A stretch of DNA of 64,000 nucleotides from Microgenomates group bacterium (GTDB lineage: Bacteria; Patescibacteriota; Microgenomatia; Daviesbacterales; UBA10151): positions 576,589 to 640,588 of the forward strand of contig JBAZXP010000001.1 of the NCBI GenBank assembly GCA_041659805.1, in the 5' to 3' direction. How positions within the stretch are numbered: position 1 is the stretch's first letter; the number at the start of each line of letters is the position of its first letter. This document shows, piece after piece, positions 15,984 to 62,369 of this stretch. The notes under the pieces were generated by a model, which saw only the letters and a program-made list of their open reading frames with translations, was not told where the DNA came from and ran no database searches. Made by a program: the position numbers and the translations under genes.

Positions 15984-17840
15984 ATGTTTAAAAAAATAAT
16001 TGTAGGGTTATTTTTGTTTTTTTGTTTTTCTTTTTTTACCCCGTCAAATATTTATGCTCAACAAGTAAATACTGATTGTCCTAACAGGTATTTAACACTT
16101 ATTAATCCTGTAAGATCCAGATCTCTTTGGGTAGATAAAACTTTGAAACCAATTCAAGATCAATATGGTTTAATAGAAAGTAATAATTTTCCTGCCACTT
16201 GGCTTTTACAAAATGACGTTTTGTTTGATGGAGAACTGATAAATGAAATCAAAAGTTTTAACACAAACCAGGAAAAGGGATTATTCTTGGAAGTCTCAGA
16301 GCAATTAGCAAATAAAGCCAGGGTCGCTTATCCGCCTTTTACTCCCTGGTACGATCCTAAAACAGTATTTTTGTCCGGCTATTCTCAATCTGAGAGACGT
16401 CTTTTAATAGACCGTATGTTCAAAGATTTTTATCAGACTTTCGGATATTATCCTAAATCTGTCGGTGCGTGGTGGATTGATTCTTATTCTCTGCAATATA
16501 TGAAAGAGAAGTATCAAGTTAAAACTGCAATGATCGTAGCTGACCAAAAAACCACAGACAGCTATGGGGTGTGGGGTCAATGGTGGGGAGTGCCGTATTA
16601 TCCGTCAATTGCAAATATTTTAACTCCTGCAAGTGCTAAGGATAATAAACAGGATGTTGTCGTAATTCAATGGGCACAAAGAGATTTGCTTTTAGCCTAC
16701 GGAGAAGGTCCGAAGTCATCGAATTTTTCTCTACAGGCAAATGATTATATTAGCCTTGGTAAAGATACAGATTTTTTTAAAAATTTAGTAAATATTTATC
16801 TTGACTGTAGGAATCCGTTAGGTCAAGTTACAGTAGGGCTAGAGACAGGGATGGAAAGTGTAGGGTCATTATCAGAGTATAAAAATCAATTATTGGCGTT
16901 AAAGGAAATTAGAGGGTTACAGATAGTTAAAATGAGTGATTTTGCTGATAAATTTGCAAAAGTCTACCCACTTTTTCCGGAAAATATAAGCCTTGGAGAT
17001 CCTGTTGTCTGGAATTTAAATACTAAAAACAGAACTAATAATTCTCTTAATGATTTAGTTGGTTATAACCCAAACTTGTCATTTGCTGATTATTTTGTAT
17101 CTGATAAATCTTCTTTTTTAGATCGAAGTTTATTAAAGCTAAAAATAATTCCAAAAACACCCTTCCCCTGGTATTTATTTTTATTGGTAATTTTTGGTAT
17201 AGCTGCATATTTTTTGAAAAAGATTAAATTATATATTTTGACGATACTTTTTATTATTGTTGCTTATGGTTTAATTTTTAGATCATATATGCAATATGGT
17301 TGGGTTATTTACTTTAGTATTGTTGATAAAAACATCGAATTTATTAAGCTGGGATTAATTATATTTTCTTTTGTTTTGATGTGGTTTTTGGATAGATGGA
17401 GTAGTAGGACGCTATTTAGGAACTCGTTGTTTATATACCTAATCCCCTTCATTTTTGGGATAGATCTTGTTTTAGAATCAATTAGATATACTTCAATTTC
17501 AGGAAGACATTATCTTGGAATTATGTTGGATTCTTTAAGGATGCTTGGGTTTTCCTTTAAAGAGCCCTTCAATTTTTCTTTCGTAAATCAAGATTTTCCC
17601 AGTATACAAGTCGTAGCATTATTAAGATTTGATTTTGAAAAAATATGGAATAGTCCCTTTTTTACAGTTATTGTTTTTCCCTTTGCACACATTCTTTTAG
17701 CAGCTATTCTTTCATTACTATTATTGGTTGCTCCTAAGTATATAAAGAAGGCGCTAATAATTATTGTAATTTTACTTTTTATTCTGCAGTTAATACACAT
17801 TTTTCAGTCTGATCCGAGAATAGTAATCCCGATTAGTTAA
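15984..17840 (+). CDS. Secreted-domain/polytopic membrane fusion protein of unknown function
   Basis: Signal-peptide-like N-terminus (MFKKIIVGLFLFFCFSFFTPSNIYAQQ), a ~370-aa Trp/Tyr-rich soluble domain, then ~8 TM helices. ATG start 2 nt after the upstream stop. Confidence 0.4.
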   Translation: MFKKIIVGLFLFFCFSFFTPSNIYAQQVNTDCPNRYLTLINPVRSRSLWVDKTLKPIQDQYGLIESNNFPATWLLQNDVLFDGELINEIKSFNTNQEKGLFLEVSEQLANKARVAYPPFTPWYDPKTVFLSGYSQSERRLLIDRMFKDFYQTFGYYPKSVGAWWIDSYSLQYMKEKYQVKTAMIVADQKTTDSYGVWGQWWGVPYYPSIANILTPASAKDNKQDVVVIQWAQRDLLLAYGEGPKSSNFSLQANDYISLGKDTDFFKNLVNIYLDCRNPLGQVTVGLETGMESVGSLSEYKNQLLALKEIRGLQIVKMSDFADKFAKVYPLFPENISLGDPVVWNLNTKNRTNNSLNDLVGYNPNLSFADYFVSDKSSFLDRSLLKLKIIPKTPFPWYLFLLVIFGIAAYFLKKIKLYILTILFIIVAYGLIFRSYMQYGWVIYFSIVDKNIEFIKLGLIIFSFVLMWFLDRWSSRTLFRNSLFIYLIPFIFGIDLVLESIRYTSISGRHYLGIMLDSLRMLGFSFKEPFNFSFVNQDFPSIQVVALLRFDFEKIWNSPFFTVIVFPFAHILLAAILSLLLLVAPKYIKKALIIIVILLFILQLIHIFQSDPRIVIPIS

Positions 17841-18906: not shown

Positions 18907-20289
18907 TTATTTTCTGATTCTAAAATCAAACAAAGTTCCTGAGAGTTTGTCATTTGATGGTAACTTAAGGCCTTTTAAACGTTTTTGAATGCTGGATTTT
19001 AAAGACAGCGCAGCTTTTAATTTCTCCATAAGCCTCTTTTTTAAACCTTCACCGGAAACTTTACGGCGTAGAGCTTGCGCTTTTTGTGATAATTCTTTAT
19101 GCTCCTTGTTCTCAACAAACATTTTTTCATAAGCTTTAGACATCTCTGCCAATTTTTTTACTCTTTTTTGAAATCCTTTATCTTTATCTATTTCCGCAAG
19201 GTCCATTTCTTTGTGTATTTCTTCTAATTTTTCCAATTCTTCTCTCAACATCATTTGTTTCTCAAGATCAACAGGAATATTTAATCCGCTGGTATTCAGT
19301 TGTGTAAAAGTTTTGCTTTTTGAACGGAAGAGAGTCAACAACTTTCTTTGTTCACTATTTCTATGATAAGTTTCATCTCCCCCATTAAGATGGAGAGTGT
19401 GCAAACTGATACTCCTTGGAATTATTGGCAGGTAATCGGAGCTATCACAATCAGTTATCAGAAGGATTTCAGTTTCAAGTCCGTTCCTTACTCTTTCTTC
19501 GCGCATATCAAAAAGATCCCTAATAGCAACACTAACGGCATTCCCGATGTATGTGCCTGTTCCACTTAACGGGTAGCCTAAGACATTTCTGGCTAGAGGA
19601 CCGAATTGATCAGGTGAAAGACAATCTGTTCTTCCGTGTGCGTCACCTGAAAAAGCACGGAAATATACCTGGGCATCCTCCTCACTGGCTTTTTTGAAAT
19701 AGGCAAGTAAGATTGATTTAGCCACTATCAGTTTATAATTTTCTGCCATGGACATTGAGACATCCATTAAGGCGTAAACTGCCTGTCTTTTAGACATTCC
19801 TTTTACAAGTTTAGGAACAACTTCTTCCAAAGTTTCTGATTTTTCTTCAGTTTGTACTCTTGGTTTTTGTTGCTCGATAATAGGTAGGTTACCGGTAATA
19901 GCTTTATAGGCAAATATATCAGGATTAGTTGTTTTTAGTAGACGGTATGGGGGTAATACCTGAGGTAATTCCCTGAGTGACTGAATGGGCCTGATCTTAA
20001 TTGAGTCAGAGGGAAAATTTGTTTTTTGCTGCCATGTTCTGGTAACGTATCTTTTTTCATAAACAGTTTTTTGATCCCGTTCAAGTAATCCCATAAAATT
20101 TTCCGGAATATCTACCCCAGGGATGGGTTTGCCGTCAAGCAGGTTTCGGGCAATATTTAAGATATGTAAATAGTTATTCGGAAGTTGCTCAAGAGCTACT
20201 TGCATGGAATCAAAGATTCCCCAGGATTTATATAATTCTGTTAGATCTTCTGACTGCGCATAAGGGTTTGATTCATCCTCTTTTGCCAT
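18907..20289 (-). CDS. von Willebrand factor A (VWA) domain protein with C-terminal coiled coil; partner of the MoxR-type ATPase
   Basis: MIDAS residues: DVSMS (DxSxS), SGTGTYIGNA (Thr) and ILLITDCDSSD (Asp). ~150-aa N-terminal domain of unknown function. C-terminal ~110 aa is K/E-rich heptad-like sequence. Start is 2 nt after the MoxR stop. Confidence 0.75.
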   Translation of the reverse strand: MAKEDESNPYAQSEDLTELYKSWGIFDSMQVALEQLPNNYLHILNIARNLLDGKPIPGVDIPENFMGLLERDQKTVYEKRYVTRTWQQKTNFPSDSIKIRPIQSLRELPQVLPPYRLLKTTNPDIFAYKAITGNLPIIEQQKPRVQTEEKSETLEEVVPKLVKGMSKRQAVYALMDVSMSMAENYKLIVAKSILLAYFKKASEEDAQVYFRAFSGDAHGRTDCLSPDQFGPLARNVLGYPLSGTGTYIGNAVSVAIRDLFDMREERVRNGLETEILLITDCDSSDYLPIIPRSISLHTLHLNGGDETYHRNSEQRKLLTLFRSKSKTFTQLNTSGLNIPVDLEKQMMLREELEKLEEIHKEMDLAEIDKDKGFQKRVKKLAEMSKAYEKMFVENKEHKELSQKAQALRRKVSGEGLKKRLMEKLKAALSLKSSIQKRLKGLKLPSNDKLSGTLFDFRIRK

Positions 20290-20290
20290 T

Positions 20291-21634
20291 TTAATTAATC
20301 CTGTGCAAAATACTTTCTCTTACTTTTTGGACTTCAGGATTAGAAATATTCATGGCAGTTAAAGTATTTGAAAAAGTATTCTGGTTTACCTCAACCCAGG
20401 AAGTTACACCAAGTATTTCAGAAAGTAACGTAAAAGGTTTTTTAAAGATATTATCTCTTTTCTTTGCTTCGATTTGTCTGTTTTCCCTGTAGGCTTCATA
20501 GAAATCATTAATCTTAAAAAGATGCTCAATATCTTCTAAGTCTTTTCCTGAAAAAGCCCCCAGGGTATCATCCAAAGCTTTTAGAAATGATTCATCTTCA
20601 TCATTTTGGGTAGTAGCTCCTCCATCATTTTGTACAGTAGTAAGAAGATATCTTAATGTGGATAGATCCTGTCCTGTTACTTCAAAGCGCCCATGAAGCA
20701 AGGCAGAGGCATTCAGTGTATTTCTGCTTTTTGCGATTGTTCGTGGACTTATATAAGGTCTGTTGGCTTTTGAATCTTTCTGTTTTCTTTGTTCATAGAC
20801 ACCTTCTACAAAATTTCTAATTAATTGATTTTTTAAAAAAAGCACTGCATTGGATGCTGTGATTAATCTATTGGGGTTGTCACCATTAACAATTCCAGAT
20901 AACTCAGCAAGTACTTCCATAGGAATGTATTGATCAGGTGCAACAACATGGCCATTATGTTTGCTATATACACGATCAATTAATACCTGATCAAAAATAT
21001 CGACTTCCGGGTTTAATCTGGCCTTAAAAAGCATTCTGTCCAAAACAGCTTCTGAAGCATCTGTGACCCTTAAATAATTTGTGGTGGCAATAGCTGTATG
21101 GAGTTTTGCTTTTTCATGTTGTTGACCATTGATGAATTCTCGTTCATTTAGAATCCCCAAAAGCGTACGCAATACCATGTCATTTGCATCCATGAATTCA
21201 TCTAAAAAGGCAAAATTTGCTGTAATAATTGATCCTTCTGTTTTATTCCATAGGATACCATCATTAAACATAGCTAAATCATAAGCTCCAATGAGTTTTT
21301 CTTCTGTAGTGCCTTGAGATAATTGAATAGAAAATGTTTGAGCGTTTTCAAATTGTCCGAATACTGTTTTACCGTAAAGAGATTTGGCTGTTCCGGGTCT
21401 TGCAAAGATAAGCTGGTGTTCTTTGGTAAGTAAAGCGAGTAAGGTTTGTGAAACTAATTTGTCTCTGCCCACGACTCTTTGTGAGACATTCTTCATAGCT
21501 CCTTTTAGAGAATCTACTGCCTCAAAAGTGTCTAAAGATGTTTTATTTTTTCCTGTTTCCAGAAGCCCCTGATAACCTGTTAGAGGAGTCAGTAAGGCGG
21601 TATCTGAAAGATAATCTACTTCAATTTTTGCCAT
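20291..21634 (-). CDS. MoxR-family AAA+ ATPase with N- and C-terminal extensions
   Basis: Walker A FARPGTAKS, Walker B FAFLDEF, sensor-1 IATTNY, MoxR-type AVLDRM motif and lid ISPRTIAKSRNTLNASALLHGRFEV. 447 aa, about 120 aa longer than canonical MoxR. Confidence 0.8.
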   Translation of the reverse strand: MAKIEVDYLSDTALLTPLTGYQGLLETGKNKTSLDTFEAVDSLKGAMKNVSQRVVGRDKLVSQTLLALLTKEHQLIFARPGTAKSLYGKTVFGQFENAQTFSIQLSQGTTEEKLIGAYDLAMFNDGILWNKTEGSIITANFAFLDEFMDANDMVLRTLLGILNEREFINGQQHEKAKLHTAIATTNYLRVTDASEAVLDRMLFKARLNPEVDIFDQVLIDRVYSKHNGHVVAPDQYIPMEVLAELSGIVNGDNPNRLITASNAVLFLKNQLIRNFVEGVYEQRKQKDSKANRPYISPRTIAKSRNTLNASALLHGRFEVTGQDLSTLRYLLTTVQNDGGATTQNDEDESFLKALDDTLGAFSGKDLEDIEHLFKINDFYEAYRENRQIEAKKRDNIFKKPFTLLSEILGVTSWVEVNQNTFSNTLTAMNISNPEVQKVRESILHRIN

Positions 21635-21731
21635 GCTGGGAATTATAATAGTTATAGGATATAAAAGTCAAGGATATTTGTGATCCTATAGTTTGACTTT
21701 TCAGAACTTTTATATAATAATATGCCTCATT

Positions 21732-22622
21732 ATGAAAAACGAGGCGAGTAAAGAAGCTTCTGTAAATTTTTTAAGTGGTGAAAAATTTACAGATTTAGGA
21801 TTATCTGCTAGAGACATTGCACTTACCAGAAAAGTCTTGCAAACTTTAAAAAAGCATTCTGATTACCCTGCGGGTTATGATATCGCCTTAAAACAGGTGC
21901 TGGATGAGCAGGATAGGGCATTAGGGTTTAAGGCATTGGAAAGAGAGCTTAAAATGTCACAAGTTCAGCACACAAGAAAAAGTTTGGGACAAATTGCTTT
22001 AAGGGCAGCAGGAGTAGTAACTGTTGTTGCAGCTATGTGGGGTATATATAGTTGTTCTGACAGTTATAATTCCCCGGAAGCAGTTGAGAAAAGAGTAGCA
22101 CAAAATGCTATAAATCAAGAAAATGAAAGGGCAAAAAAAGAACAGGAATTCATAAGCAAGTCTCAGCTAGAAGGCGAGAGAACATTGGGATTGGAAAGAT
22201 CCCCTATTTCAAATACCGGTTTCTCTTTTCGCTATATGCCAAAGAAGGAAGGCGTAAGATATGTTGAAGTTGGAGGAACATATAATTCCTTTAATATTGG
22301 AAAAGCTTCCTATGTGAATTGGAAAGAAGAGAAATCTCCGAAAGAAACAGTAGATATAGTGACATGGATTTTTACCGATACCTATACCAGGGTAAAGGAT
22401 GGAAAAGTTGTTCCACAATTAACGATTGATCTATTAGGAGATAAAAGGACATTTGAGAAGCGTTACTTAAGAATTGAATCTACTGAGGATATTGATAATT
22501 CTATGTTGATTTTTGAAGATGTTAAAAAGAATAAAGAGTATATTTTCAAAGTCACACCTGTAAATGATATGACAACTCTACAATTTGTTCTCGTGAGGGA
22601 AGAAGCTGTAGATGGATCTTAA
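21732..22622 (+). CDS. Single-pass membrane protein of unknown function, divergently transcribed from the MoxR/VWA pair
   Basis: Track ORF starts at TTG 21693; the ATG at 21732 (MKNEASKEAS...) is preferred. One TM helix (IALRAAGVVTVVAAMWGIYS) separates a ~95-aa N-terminal helical domain from a ~180-aa beta-rich C-terminal domain. Only ~97 bp separate it from the MoxR start. Confidence 0.45.
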   Translation: MKNEASKEASVNFLSGEKFTDLGLSARDIALTRKVLQTLKKHSDYPAGYDIALKQVLDEQDRALGFKALERELKMSQVQHTRKSLGQIALRAAGVVTVVAAMWGIYSCSDSYNSPEAVEKRVAQNAINQENERAKKEQEFISKSQLEGERTLGLERSPISNTGFSFRYMPKKEGVRYVEVGGTYNSFNIGKASYVNWKEEKSPKETVDIVTWIFTDTYTRVKDGKVVPQLTIDLLGDKRTFEKRYLRIESTEDIDNSMLIFEDVKKNKEYIFKVTPVNDMTTLQFVLVREEAVDGS

Positions 22623-31707: not shown

Positions 31708-32822
31708 GGATTGTAATTGATGCTCGTCTTTGGTCTGAGAGTGGGCTAGGAAGGTATATCAGAAACTTAGTATTGGAACTTGCAAAAATTGATTCAGCAA
31801 ATCATTATGATATTCTTCTTTTAAAAAAAGACTTTGACAAAATAGATTATTTTAGAAATAATTTTCATAAAGTTTTGGCTGATTTTAAGTGGTATGGGTT
31901 TGCTGAGCAGATTAAAATGCCAAAGTTATTAAATAGTTTAAAACCTGATTTGGTGCATTTCCCTCATTTCAATGTACCTATTTTATACAAAGGAAAGTTT
32001 GTAGTAACGATTCATGATTTAATTCATCAACATTATAAAACCAGAGAATCTACAACTCATAATAAATTGATGTATAGTATGAAAAATCTCGGATATAAAA
32101 AAATTTTTAGCAATGCTATTAAGAAAGCCGATAGAATTATTACTCCGTCAAAGTCCGTAAAGAACCAATTAATTAATGAATGGAATATAGATCAGGCAAA
32201 AATTGAGATTACTCCTGAGGCAGTAGATACTTCTTTAATAAATATTTCCAAGCAAATTAGGAATAATGATTTCCAAAAAGTAAGTCATAAATGGGGTATA
32301 AAAAAACCATATATTTTTTATGTCGGAAATGCTCAACCGCACAAAAATATAGAACGGTTAATTGAGGTATTTATTCAAATAAAAAATAAGTATTCTGAAT
32401 ATCAATTAATTTTGTCAGGCCCTGACAATTATTTTTGGAATAAAACTATAAAAAGATATAATGTTAAGGATTTAATTTTTACAGGTTTTTTAAGTGAGAG
32501 GGAACTCGTAACTTTGTATAAAAATGCTGATCTCTTTGTGCTCCCATCATTGGAGGAAGGATTCGGGATTCCTGTCTTGGAGGCAATGGCATGCGGTTGT
32601 CCTGTTGTATGTTCTAATACAGGGTCTTTACCAGAGGTTGCCGCGGATGCAGCTGTTTATTTTAACCCCCGGATTCTAAAAGATATGGAAGAAAAAATTT
32701 CTTCAGTTTTGGAAAACCGGAAATTTAGAAAAGAATTAATCGAAAAAGGTGAATTGAGATTTAAAAAATTTAGTTGGAAAAGATTAGCTCATCAAACTCT
32801 GGAAATTTATCTAAAATCTTAA
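31704..32822 (+). CDS. GT4 (family 1) glycosyltransferase
   Basis: EGFGIPVLEAMACGCPVVCSNTGSLPEVAADAAVYFNP. The ATG at 31704 overlaps the upstream stop (ATGA). Confidence 0.8.
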   Translation: MRIVIDARLWSESGLGRYIRNLVLELAKIDSANHYDILLLKKDFDKIDYFRNNFHKVLADFKWYGFAEQIKMPKLLNSLKPDLVHFPHFNVPILYKGKFVVTIHDLIHQHYKTRESTTHNKLMYSMKNLGYKKIFSNAIKKADRIITPSKSVKNQLINEWNIDQAKIEITPEAVDTSLINISKQIRNNDFQKVSHKWGIKKPYIFYVGNAQPHKNIERLIEVFIQIKNKYSEYQLILSGPDNYFWNKTIKRYNVKDLIFTGFLSERELVTLYKNADLFVLPSLEEGFGIPVLEAMACGCPVVCSNTGSLPEVAADAAVYFNPRILKDMEEKISSVLENRKFRKELIEKGELRFKKFSWKRLAHQTLEIYLKS

Positions 32823-33730
32823 ATTTTTTCTGCTGCGCGGAGTTTAGCACTACGGGAACGCGGGTTAACTTCAACTTCTGACTCTGTTGGCTCAATTGGT
32901 TTTTGAGTAATAATTTTGATCGAGTACTTTTCTTCCTCAATTTTAAAGAAATTCTTAACAATTCTGTCTTCCAACGAGTGGAAACTAATTACAACTATCC
33001 TACCGAAGGGTTGTAAAACATCTAGTGCTTGGGGTAATGCATCTTCCAGACTGCGTAACTCGTCATTTACAGCAATACGCAATGCTTGGAATACTTTTGT
33101 TGCCGGATGAATTTTGTTTACACGATTAAATCTTTTTACTGAAAGAATAATTTGTGATAATTTTTCTGTAGTATCAATTTTTTCACGACTTCTGTATTCG
33201 ATAATTTTTTTGGCAATAGGTTTTGCAAATTGCTCATCCCCGTATTTCCAAAATAGTTCTGTAAGCTCTGATAAATACAATCCGTTTACAAGATCAGCTG
33301 CTGTTAAACTTTGGGATCTGTTCATCCTCATATCTAAAGGTGCATTTTTATTAAAAGAGAATCCTCTTGAGGTTGTGTCTAATTGACTTGATGAAAGTCC
33401 CAGATCAAATAGTATACCTGCAGGATCCTGTTTCAGAAATTGCGACGAGATGTCTTTTAATTGAGAAAAATTTGCCTGACAGATAATTAATTTATCAGAA
33501 ACTGCCAGGAAACGGTCATTAACTAAATTAACCGTTAGCTTGTGTTTTTCAGCAACTTCTTTAATTGCCTCAAAATCCAAATCTATCCCCAATACATTTC
33601 CCCCTTCTTCAAGTATTTTATCCGTGTGCCCTCCGCCACCCAGATTGCAATCAATATACCAGGCATTTTTTTTGATTTTTAAATATTGGATTGCCTCGTT
33701 TGCCATGACTGGAATATGATATGTGCCCAT
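32819..33730 (-). CDS. rsmH: 16S rRNA (cytosine1402-N4)-methyltransferase RsmH (MraW)
   Basis: N-terminal HIPVMANEAIQYL...YIDCNLGGGGHT and C-terminal FHSLEDRIVK motifs. 303 aa. Confidence 0.9.
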   Translation of the reverse strand: MGTYHIPVMANEAIQYLKIKKNAWYIDCNLGGGGHTDKILEEGGNVLGIDLDFEAIKEVAEKHKLTVNLVNDRFLAVSDKLIICQANFSQLKDISSQFLKQDPAGILFDLGLSSSQLDTTSRGFSFNKNAPLDMRMNRSQSLTAADLVNGLYLSELTELFWKYGDEQFAKPIAKKIIEYRSREKIDTTEKLSQIILSVKRFNRVNKIHPATKVFQALRIAVNDELRSLEDALPQALDVLQPFGRIVVISFHSLEDRIVKNFFKIEEEKYSIKIITQKPIEPTESEVEVNPRSRSAKLRAAEKI

Positions 33731-62286: not shown

Positions 62287-62360
62287 GGTCGTATAGCTCA
62301 GTTGGTTAGAGCGCTTCATTCACATTGAAGAGGTCTCTGGTTCGAGTCCAGATACGACCA
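62287..62360 (+). tRNA. tRNA-Val (anticodon CAC)
   Basis: 74-nt cloverleaf read by eye. Acceptor stem GGTCGTA/TACGACC, D-arm GCTC-AGTTGGTTA-GAGC, anticodon stem CTTCA/TGAAG with loop TTCACAT (U33, CAC, A37), T-arm TCTGG-TTCGAGT-CCAGA, discriminator A. No encoded CCA. Confidence 0.85.
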
Positions 62361-62369
62361 CATTTTTAT

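Follow-up and report, generated by a model that had tools for sequence, protein, structure and literature searches.

A divergent RavA/ViaA-type ATPase–VWA pair with a putative lineage-specific membrane partner in a Microgenomates-group bacterium

Introduction

What might a MoxR-type AAA+ ATPase and its von Willebrand factor A (VWA) partner do in a bacterium of the Candidate Phyla Radiation (CPR), encoded antisense within a glycosylation locus and beside a divergently transcribed membrane protein? The question is raised by three adjacent genes in a 64-kb window (the whole stretch of DNA analysed here, 64,000 nucleotides) of the 1.13 Mb contig JBAZXP010000001.1 from a Microgenomates-group CPR bacterium. 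The closest comparison is RavA-ViaA, one of the least understood MoxR systems, whose proposed partners (fumarate reductase, Complex I and LdcI) and link to membrane lipids are debated. To our knowledge, CPR bacteria lack the respiratory complexes and the LdcI that have been put forward in this role.

Here we find that the ATPase and the VWA protein form a multi-phylum sister family of RavA/ViaA, not characterised before, with a different domain periphery; our literature search found no paper describing the RavA/ViaA-like family of this locus. On balance we lean towards reading the locus as a divergent RavA/ViaA-type, membrane-proximal remodelling machine with a lineage-specific anchor or client. 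The classification is much firmer than the client part of this proposal.

Results

Placement of the ATPase in the RavA clade

Pfam profiles matched the ATPase as bpMoxR (PF20030, 1.6e-32), AAA_5 (5.5e-15) and AAA_lid_8 (4.9e-6), and its sole NCBIfam match was RavA (the equivalog NF010054), at 91.5 bits against a cutoff of 681. A single-sequence phmmer search of the PDB matched RavA alone (1.4e-21, core and lid). When a 35-sequence profile of the ATPase family was used instead, RavA again came first (1.6e-27), followed by the generic, MRP-type MoxR protein 2r44 at 2.8e-8, leaving RavA as the only strong relative of known structure; no NorQ or CbbQ chain was matched by this profile at E <= 1e-3. 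Alignment of the family with E. coli RavA by hhalign (probability 99.6) paired residues 52-331 with RavA 20-284, spanning the AAA+ core and the lid, AAA_lid_8, which is of the RavA type. None of the 35 homologues varies at Walker A K84, Walker B D145/E146, sensor-1 N186, R200 or lid P297/R298. These comparisons place the protein firmly among the RavA-clade MoxR AAA+ proteins and predict that it is catalytically intact.

The periphery of the ATPase is its own. No match to LARA_dom (PF20265) or ATPase_RavA_C (PF12592) was found in Pfam at E <= 1, whereas the control, E. coli RavA, matched them at 1e-39 and 1.8e-23. In their place stand an unrelated C-terminal domain of ~115 residues (aa 332-447), specific to the family, and an N-terminus ~30 residues longer. 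The initial annotation had judged such extensions not to fit the canonical short MoxR; they instead follow the long architecture of RavA, whose extra C-terminal domains they match in position and not in sequence, and all across this family of ~440-aa proteins they are preserved (784 matches; alignment of 35). The P-loop also differs, reading ARPGTAKS here and GPPGIAKS in E. coli RavA. Since E. coli RavA matches PF20030 at 1.5e-56, more strongly than the ATPase of the window, we regard this profile as a marker of the RavA clade and not as a sign of a conflict system.

Some family members, including one from Azambacteria (L024) and the representatives P0027, P0031 and P0035, are longer (538-737 aa) and carry N-terminal extensions of 90-300 residues. 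These are P/E/A/S-rich and of low complexity, with no Pfam domain and no membrane segment, and the Walker A motif of the extended proteins reads SRAG[LM]AKS.

The VWA protein as a ViaA-like cofactor

The Pfam VWA match of the partner protein is confined to its central region, where the sequence DxSxS...T...D falls on a Rossmann-like VWA fold. The residues of the metal ion-dependent adhesion site (MIDAS), D176, S178, S180, T246 and D280, do not vary among 14 close homologues; in 31 distant ones the same holds for D176, S178, T246 and D280. A 31-sequence profile of the family aligned with E. coli ViaA by hhalign (probability 96.6, E 5.7e-10), pairing residues 97-303 with ViaA 250-450, that is, the VWA domain together with ~70 preceding residues. 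The alignments mark the predicted protein as ViaA-like, and its MIDAS is complete. NCBIfam returned only a chance-level match for it (E 0.18). The best PDB sequence match of the VWA profile, 8s05 (Sulfolobus ArnB), was set aside as a likeness at the level of the VWA domain alone.

An AlphaFold2 (AF2) model of the protein had a mean predicted local distance difference test (pLDDT) score of 69.9, with 80-90 in the VWA domain. The C-terminal ~120 residues are helical by DSSP of this model (pLDDT ~70-87 for residues 340-440). The N-terminal 165 residues are poorly modelled (pLDDT 31-64); two long strands within this part, 73-92 and 144-163, may make up a ribbon that protrudes.

Conservation extends to the extreme C-terminus, which reads GTLFDFRIRK in the window, GTLFDFRI[KR] in CPR bacteria and G-x-x-F-R-x-[RK] in Chloroflexota. 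The last 40 residues, often rich in W, F and R, carry a net charge of at least +4 in 27 of the 31 family members, the rest of the protein being acidic or neutral; the value is +8 for both the window protein and E. coli ViaA. In ViaA, the basic amphipathic C-terminus has been shown experimentally to be an anionic-lipid and membrane-targeting element (PMC9489729), and by its composition the tail found here appears similar to this lipid-binding helix.

The initial annotation had described a MoxR-type AAA+ ATPase paired with a MIDAS-VWA protein and had expected AAA_3 or AAA_5 plus VWA in profile searches. The pairing is borne out by the Pfam matches, AAA_5 for the ATPase and VWA for its partner, and by the invariant catalytic and MIDAS residues.

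Conservation of the two-gene module

Relatives of the pair were sought in one genome per GTDB species; 299 were found, and the best 80 loci were examined. These lie in Patescibacteria, Chloroflexota (Dehalococcoidia and Tepidiformales, including the cultured Tepidiforma flava), Planctomycetota, Armatimonadota, Desulfobacterota, Kapabacteria and other groups. By family hidden Markov model (HMM), a VWA gene lies directly downstream of the ATPase gene in 70 of 83 loci, several of the remaining 13 ending at contig edges. Calling of open reading frames (ORFs) in the high-GC loci gave antisense shadow ORFs (families f2 and f4), and HMM-confirmed matches alone were counted.

The other neighbours of the pair vary between phyla and include acetyl-CoA synthetase, PAS/histidine kinase, enoyl-CoA hydratase, LUD/Fe-S, radical SAM and sigma-54 genes. 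Because adjacency of the VWA gene persists while these neighbours change, the conserved functional unit is, on gene-order evidence, the two-gene ATPase-VWA module. Clustering of the neighbours gave no universal third gene beside the pair across phyla, only locally recurring genes.

Among the latter, an acetyl-CoA synthetase gene (ACAS_N plus AMP-binding) lies just upstream of the pair in four Desulfobacterota and two Planctomycetota loci, a cross-phylum recurrence that could be a client lead or a coincidence. PAS or histidine-kinase genes also recur beside the pair in some loci. In more distantly related Kapabacteria/Bacteroidota loci (L075, L072 and L076), the ATPase gene is followed by a conserved block of rpoN (sigma-54) and a dihydroorotate-dehydrogenase-like gene in place of a VWA gene, so that the ATPase clade also exists without an adjacent VWA partner.

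A membrane protein of restricted distribution

The third protein gave no match in Pfam, NCBIfam, PADLOC, PHROGs or the PDB. It has one hydrophobic segment (aa 88-106, KD19 = 1.70), preceded by a region enriched in K and R; hydropathy and this K/R bias, found at the same position across the family, indicate N-in/C-out as the predicted topology. The segment separates a cytoplasmic helical N-part (aa 1-85), which carries the motif YPxGYDxALKxxLDEQD, from a helical stalk and an all-beta domain predicted to be extracytoplasmic (aa ~160-296). The ~135 residues of beta structure after the stalk come from a low-confidence AF2 model, built on a 3-sequence alignment (pLDDT 54), of which the secondary structure alone was used.

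An exhaustive HMMER search among 1.84 billion representatives defined a family of 40 clusters, 22 of them below 1e-10. Its members are 190-365 aa long (all but one 260-365 aa), share the extracytoplasmic motifs SPEA, LGLxPSxxSxxGW and IDTRVVxFE, and belong to CPR/Patescibacteria in every case placed so far.

We verified the divergent arrangement of the three genes (the triad) in four loci: the window, L001, L002/L003 and L087, the membrane proteins of the last three being 43%, 28% and 42% identical to that of the window. From contigs of identical length we infer two further triads (P0003/P0122 and P0007/P0140). A membrane gene is present beside every ATPase at least 52% identical to that of the window whose context was visible. 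Across the four verified loci the divergent arrangement, a gap of 90-132 bp and back-to-back -35 boxes persist while the other flanks differ. Apart from one representative without context information, the family members that have the motif YPxG[YL]D all come from triad loci; the 27 other representatives lack it. These results uphold the suggestion that the membrane ORF is a conserved gene. The idea that the triad is conserved as a unit holds in part: the membrane gene travels with the pair in the closest relatives despite changed flanks, and the pair and the membrane family also occur apart.

Three members of the membrane family stand alone (L089, L090 and L091). They sit among small unannotated genes and have no common neighbour; the L091 gene adjoins an RDD/TPR protein gene, and that of L090 lies near a PIN/RHH toxin-antitoxin pair. 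In metagenomes, a first scan for further contexts of the family turned up none, and a second, with the VWA alignment as query, yielded only 5 loci.

Gene boundaries and the divergent control region

The coordinates of the features are collected in Table 1. For the three ORFs, the initial annotation was right as to position, the 296-residue length and the ~97-bp divergent gap; its 2-nt gap between the ATPase and VWA genes needs correction, as the junction reads TAA-A-ATG and leaves a 1-nt spacer. An AGGA lies ~10 nt upstream of this ATG, and the two genes are probably translationally coupled. In the ORF listing the membrane ORF starts at a TTG farther upstream, at 21693 (309 aa), but the homologues all align from the ATG and the TTG begins a -35-like hexamer, from which we take the protein to be 296 aa long and the divergent gap to be 97 bp.

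Both strands of this gap carry predicted promoters, recognised as consensus matches, of which that on the minus strand agrees with the consensus at 11 of 12 positions. Their -35 boxes, both TTGACT and near consensus, together make a perfect inverted repeat of 9 nt, AAAAGTCAA/TTGACTTTT. L087 and L002 have this symmetric repeat in their corresponding intergenic regions too, the spacings being 21, 18 and 7 nt across the window, L087 and L002. Between the -35 boxes of the window there is also a second, 8-nt inverted repeat, TATAGGAT/ATCCTATA, which could be a candidate operator.

Table 1. Features of the window and of related loci. Coordinates refer to the window unless a locus is named.
Feature	Coordinates	Strand	Description
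RavA-clade MoxR AAA+ ATPase (predicted)	20291-21634	-	447 aa; AAA+ core ~aa 52-209, AAA_lid_8 aa 277-331
ViaA-like VWA cofactor (predicted)	18907-20289	-	460 aa; VWA domain with complete MIDAS aa ~166-335
VWA cofactor, other parts			N-terminal domain aa 1-165; helical C-terminal region aa ~340-440; basic tail
Single-pass membrane protein	21732-22622	+	296 aa from ATG 21732
Divergent control region	21635-21731		97 bp; two back-to-back sigma-70-like promoters (predicted)
Promoter-like site	21671->21642	-	TTGACT-18-TATAAT
Promoter-like site	21693-21721	+	TTGACT-17-AATAAT
Back-to-back -35 region, window	21653-21721
Back-to-back -35 region, L087	5744-5777
Back-to-back -35 region, L002	5939-5971
Glycosylation/polysaccharide locus	11893-37446	+	nearly co-directional
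618-aa protein	15984-17840	+	between PMT_2 and GT4 genes
MraW/RsmH methyltransferase	32819-33730	-	opposite to glycosylation locus
tRNA-Val (CAC)	62287-62361	+
Stand-alone membrane-family member, L089	5001-5825		Curtissbacteria JACPEV010000010.1
Stand-alone membrane-family member, L090	3625-4596
Stand-alone membrane-family member, L091	3519-4469
Acetyl-CoA synthetase, L057	3170-5152
Acetyl-CoA synthetase, L064	3197-5182
Acetyl-CoA synthetase, L066	3168-5141
Acetyl-CoA synthetase, L061	1-1004
Acetyl-CoA synthetase, L044	2246-4297
Acetyl-CoA synthetase, L045	2457-4667
Extended ATPase, L024	1356-3422		Azambacteria
ATPase-rpoN locus, L075	7356-9020

Discussion

Comparison with known MoxR-VWA systems

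Besides the aligned domains and the similar tail, the pair shares with RavA-ViaA of E. coli its gene order, ATPase then VWA, and the abutting of the two genes. The systems differ in the layout of the cofactor. ViaA has an alpha-helical, RavA-binding N-terminal domain (NTV, 1-319) followed by a C-terminal VWA domain, whereas the window protein has no counterpart of ViaA 1-250, and its VWA domain lies in the middle, with ~120 helical residues after it. A clade-specific membrane partner appears to have been added here as well.

With NorQ-NorD, and also CbbQ-CbbO and CoxD-CoxE, the pair would share the logic of a MoxR hexamer and a single MIDAS-VWA adaptor. In that system a finger of the NorD VWA domain enters the NorQ pore and the NorD C-terminus contacts NorQ (PMC13036017, PMC9976466); by analogy, the conserved extreme C-terminus of the window VWA protein could dock in the same way. 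The VWA protein departs from these systems in its N- and C-terminal regions, and the neighbours of the pair are glycosylation genes only, with no nor, cbb or cox client gene nearby. The initial annotation was thus correct that no enzyme client lies beside the pair. A CbbQ/CbbO-type placement, which it had named as one outcome that would speak against its own reading, finds no footing, with no NorQ/CbbQ match in the PDB at the threshold given above and no client operon nearby.

The MoxR-vWA-beta-propeller ternary systems from which PF20030 derives (Kaur et al. 2020, eLife) resemble the locus in their match to this profile, their TAKS-type P-loop and a third component that combines a globular N-part with a single membrane segment. 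The VWA protein of the window, however, does not have their obligatory C-terminal beta-propeller, and its third component contains neither TPR nor propeller. The PF20030 match is also common to RavA and hence not discriminating. A MoxR ATPase, a VWA protein and membrane anchoring are also combined in another setting. In the Bat operons of Bacteroides, a MoxR protein of the MRP subfamily is encoded with a DUF58 protein and the membrane-anchored VWA proteins BatA and BatB. Here, by contrast, the ATPase belongs to the RavA clade (with only the weak match to 2r44), there is no DUF58 protein, and the membrane segment lies on a separate, unrelated protein.

A proposed membrane-proximal remodelling machine

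By analogy with these systems, the ATPase would form a hexameric ring on which one VWA protein docks, either through its N-terminal region, as in ViaA, or through a protruding beta element and/or its conserved C-terminus, as in NorD. The MIDAS metal would then grip an acidic residue of the client, and ATP hydrolysis would pull or twist the adaptor so that the client is remodelled. The basic, aromatic-containing tail of the VWA protein may hold the complex against the membrane on its cytoplasmic side. In the CPR sub-clade of the window, the cytoplasmic N-part of the single-pass protein may serve as a lineage-specific anchor or client; we propose it as a partner because the triad persists with differing flanks and because only family members linked to the pair have the acidic cytoplasmic motif. 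The surrounding glycosylation genes are probably just neighbours. A membrane or envelope-proximal remodelling role, as the initial annotation had suggested, is therefore a reasonable proposal.

Several observations weigh against this reading, on both its parts. The pair is not orthologous to RavA/ViaA, given the RavA score of 91 bits against 681 and the missing LARA/RavA_C domains; the N-terminal 250 residues of ViaA are left unaligned, with a VWA domain that is central and not C-terminal; and the tail of the window protein is only weakly amphipathic by calculation, with a hydrophobic moment of 0.37 vs 0.54 for the ViaA tail. As for the membrane protein, its model has a low pLDDT, L083/L094, L093 and all non-CPR loci have the pair but not the membrane gene, and L089, L090 and L091 have no pair nearby (L089 was seen with full 5-kb flanks). 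The stand-alone L091 protein is as similar to that of the window as is the triad member in L002. No client was identified.

These points lend themselves to another explanation, namely that the pair acts alone on a client elsewhere, on membrane lipids or on generic substrates, as proposed for RavA-ViaA, and that the 296-aa gene is an unrelated neighbour which one clade has kept through common descent. The ~70 loci of other phyla that have the pair without the membrane gene, the same lack in the nearest outgroup loci L083 and L093, and the membrane family without the pair in L089-L091 all agree with it, and the confinement of the triad loci to one ATPase clade (at least 52% identity) is compatible with a single historical juxtaposition. 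Chance descent does not readily account, however, for an arrangement, gap and pair of -35 boxes that are kept in four triad loci down to 28% identity while the other flanks have changed, nor for a cytoplasmic motif specific to pair-linked members, and we consider this explanation unlikely, although it deserves to be taken seriously. A bolder version of the remodelling proposal would make the triad a transmembrane 'inside-out' device, in which the membrane-tethered motor grips the YPxGYDxALKxxLDEQD motif through the MIDAS and, driven by ATP, pulls on or reorients the membrane protein, so that the beta-domain outside the cytoplasm changes its state or its exposure on the cell surface. Such a device, specific to a CPR (Microgenomates-related) lineage of episymbiotic ultra-small bacteria, strikes us as improbable; if it did exist, it would point to an ancestral, respiration-independent job of RavA-ViaA-type machines.

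The genomic surroundings suggest two more specialised roles. The module could serve specifically to mature or remodel the enzymes of envelope glycosylation, with a glycosyltransferase, PMT-like enzyme or polymerase as its client: it is embedded in a large glycosylation locus, GT2 genes and an ABC-2 exporter likewise lie close to it in its nearest relative, L001, and a PIG-L deacetylase gene adjoins the pair in L085. Against this, the module runs opposite to the island, glycosylation genes are absent from the 5-6 kb around the triads in L002 and L087, and the neighbours in other phyla are among those listed above (acetyl-CoA synthetase, PAS/histidine kinase, enoyl-CoA hydratase, LUD/Fe-S and sigma-54). 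The link to envelope glycosylation drawn in the initial annotation is not conserved: other triad loci lie beside LexA and PGI (L087), ParE, TatD and Crp (L002) or patatin and ABC transporter genes together with GT2 (L001). We consider a role in glycosylation distinctly improbable. The other role, a minimal MoxR-vWA conflict system such as Kaur, Burroughs, Iyer and Aravind have described, with the membrane protein as sensor or effector, takes its appeal from the best Pfam match, PF20030 ('MoxR domain in the MoxR-vWA-beta-propeller ternary systems'), from an xxxGTAKS-type P-loop and a third component with globular domain and membrane segment as published for those systems (PMC7159879), and from a ParE-like toxin gene nearby in L002. 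Neither the profile nor the P-loop discriminates, however, as E. coli RavA has the stronger PF20030 match and an xxxGIAKS loop. No propeller or WD/Kelch-type domain was matched after the VWA domain in Pfam at E <= 1, a region modelled as helical; the membrane protein has no TPR or propeller match in Pfam; and no VMAP, iSTAND or FtsH component and no effector domain is present among the three proteins by the published definitions (PMC7159879). PADLOC-DB v2 gave no match at E <= 1 for any of the three, and across phyla the two-gene architecture is conserved in housekeeping contexts. We rejected the conflict or defence reading on the empty PADLOC search, the non-discriminating PF20030 match and the missing propeller and TPR, and regard a minimal conflict system, as first suggested, as very improbable. 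In other phyla, moreover, the pair has housekeeping or metabolic genes as its neighbours. A phage link was likewise rejected, as PHROGs gave a generic ATPase family only and tblastn against phages gave generic MoxR matches of 25-29% identity.

The reading of the locus as a divergent RavA/ViaA-type remodelling machine is incremental, in that it demonstrates neither a new mechanism nor a new kind of system. Its interest lies in a family in which the ATPase core, the MIDAS-VWA domain and the basic tail are retained but the enterobacterial add-ons are missing. As far as we know, a CPR genome of this kind (~1.1 Mb) should lack the proposed respiratory partners of RavA-ViaA. The family could therefore help to separate the core function of RavA/ViaA-type machines from their lineage-specific clients, for which the CPR-specific membrane protein offers one concrete candidate.

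Genomic setting and minor observations

The module lies in a very large glycosylation/polysaccharide locus that encodes PIG-V-like, three PMT_2-type, at least five GT4 and at least four GT2 proteins, a hexapeptide acyltransferase, a Wzy_C-like protein, a Bac_transf priming transferase and DUF4012. On one side the module is flanked by genes for two PMT_2-type proteins, a PIG-V-like protein and a GT4; on the other follow GT4, GT2, hexapeptide acyltransferase, GT2, Wzy_C, PMT_2, more GT4 and GT2, Bac_transf and DUF4012. As the initial annotation had noted, the pair is on the opposite strand of this otherwise co-directional locus, the MraW/RsmH methyltransferase gene being the other exception. That the module had been inserted into the island finds little backing: its GC content is 0.36 vs 0.31-0.34 in the flanks, and no relative with an empty site was found.

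Within the same locus, a 618-aa protein has an N-terminal signal-like segment and a multi-pass hydrophobic C-terminal half, with no Pfam match at E <= 0.001. It may be an envelope glycan-processing or polymerase protein not yet characterised. The sole RNA gene found in the window by ARAGORN and Rfam encodes the tRNA-Val (CAC) listed in Table 1.

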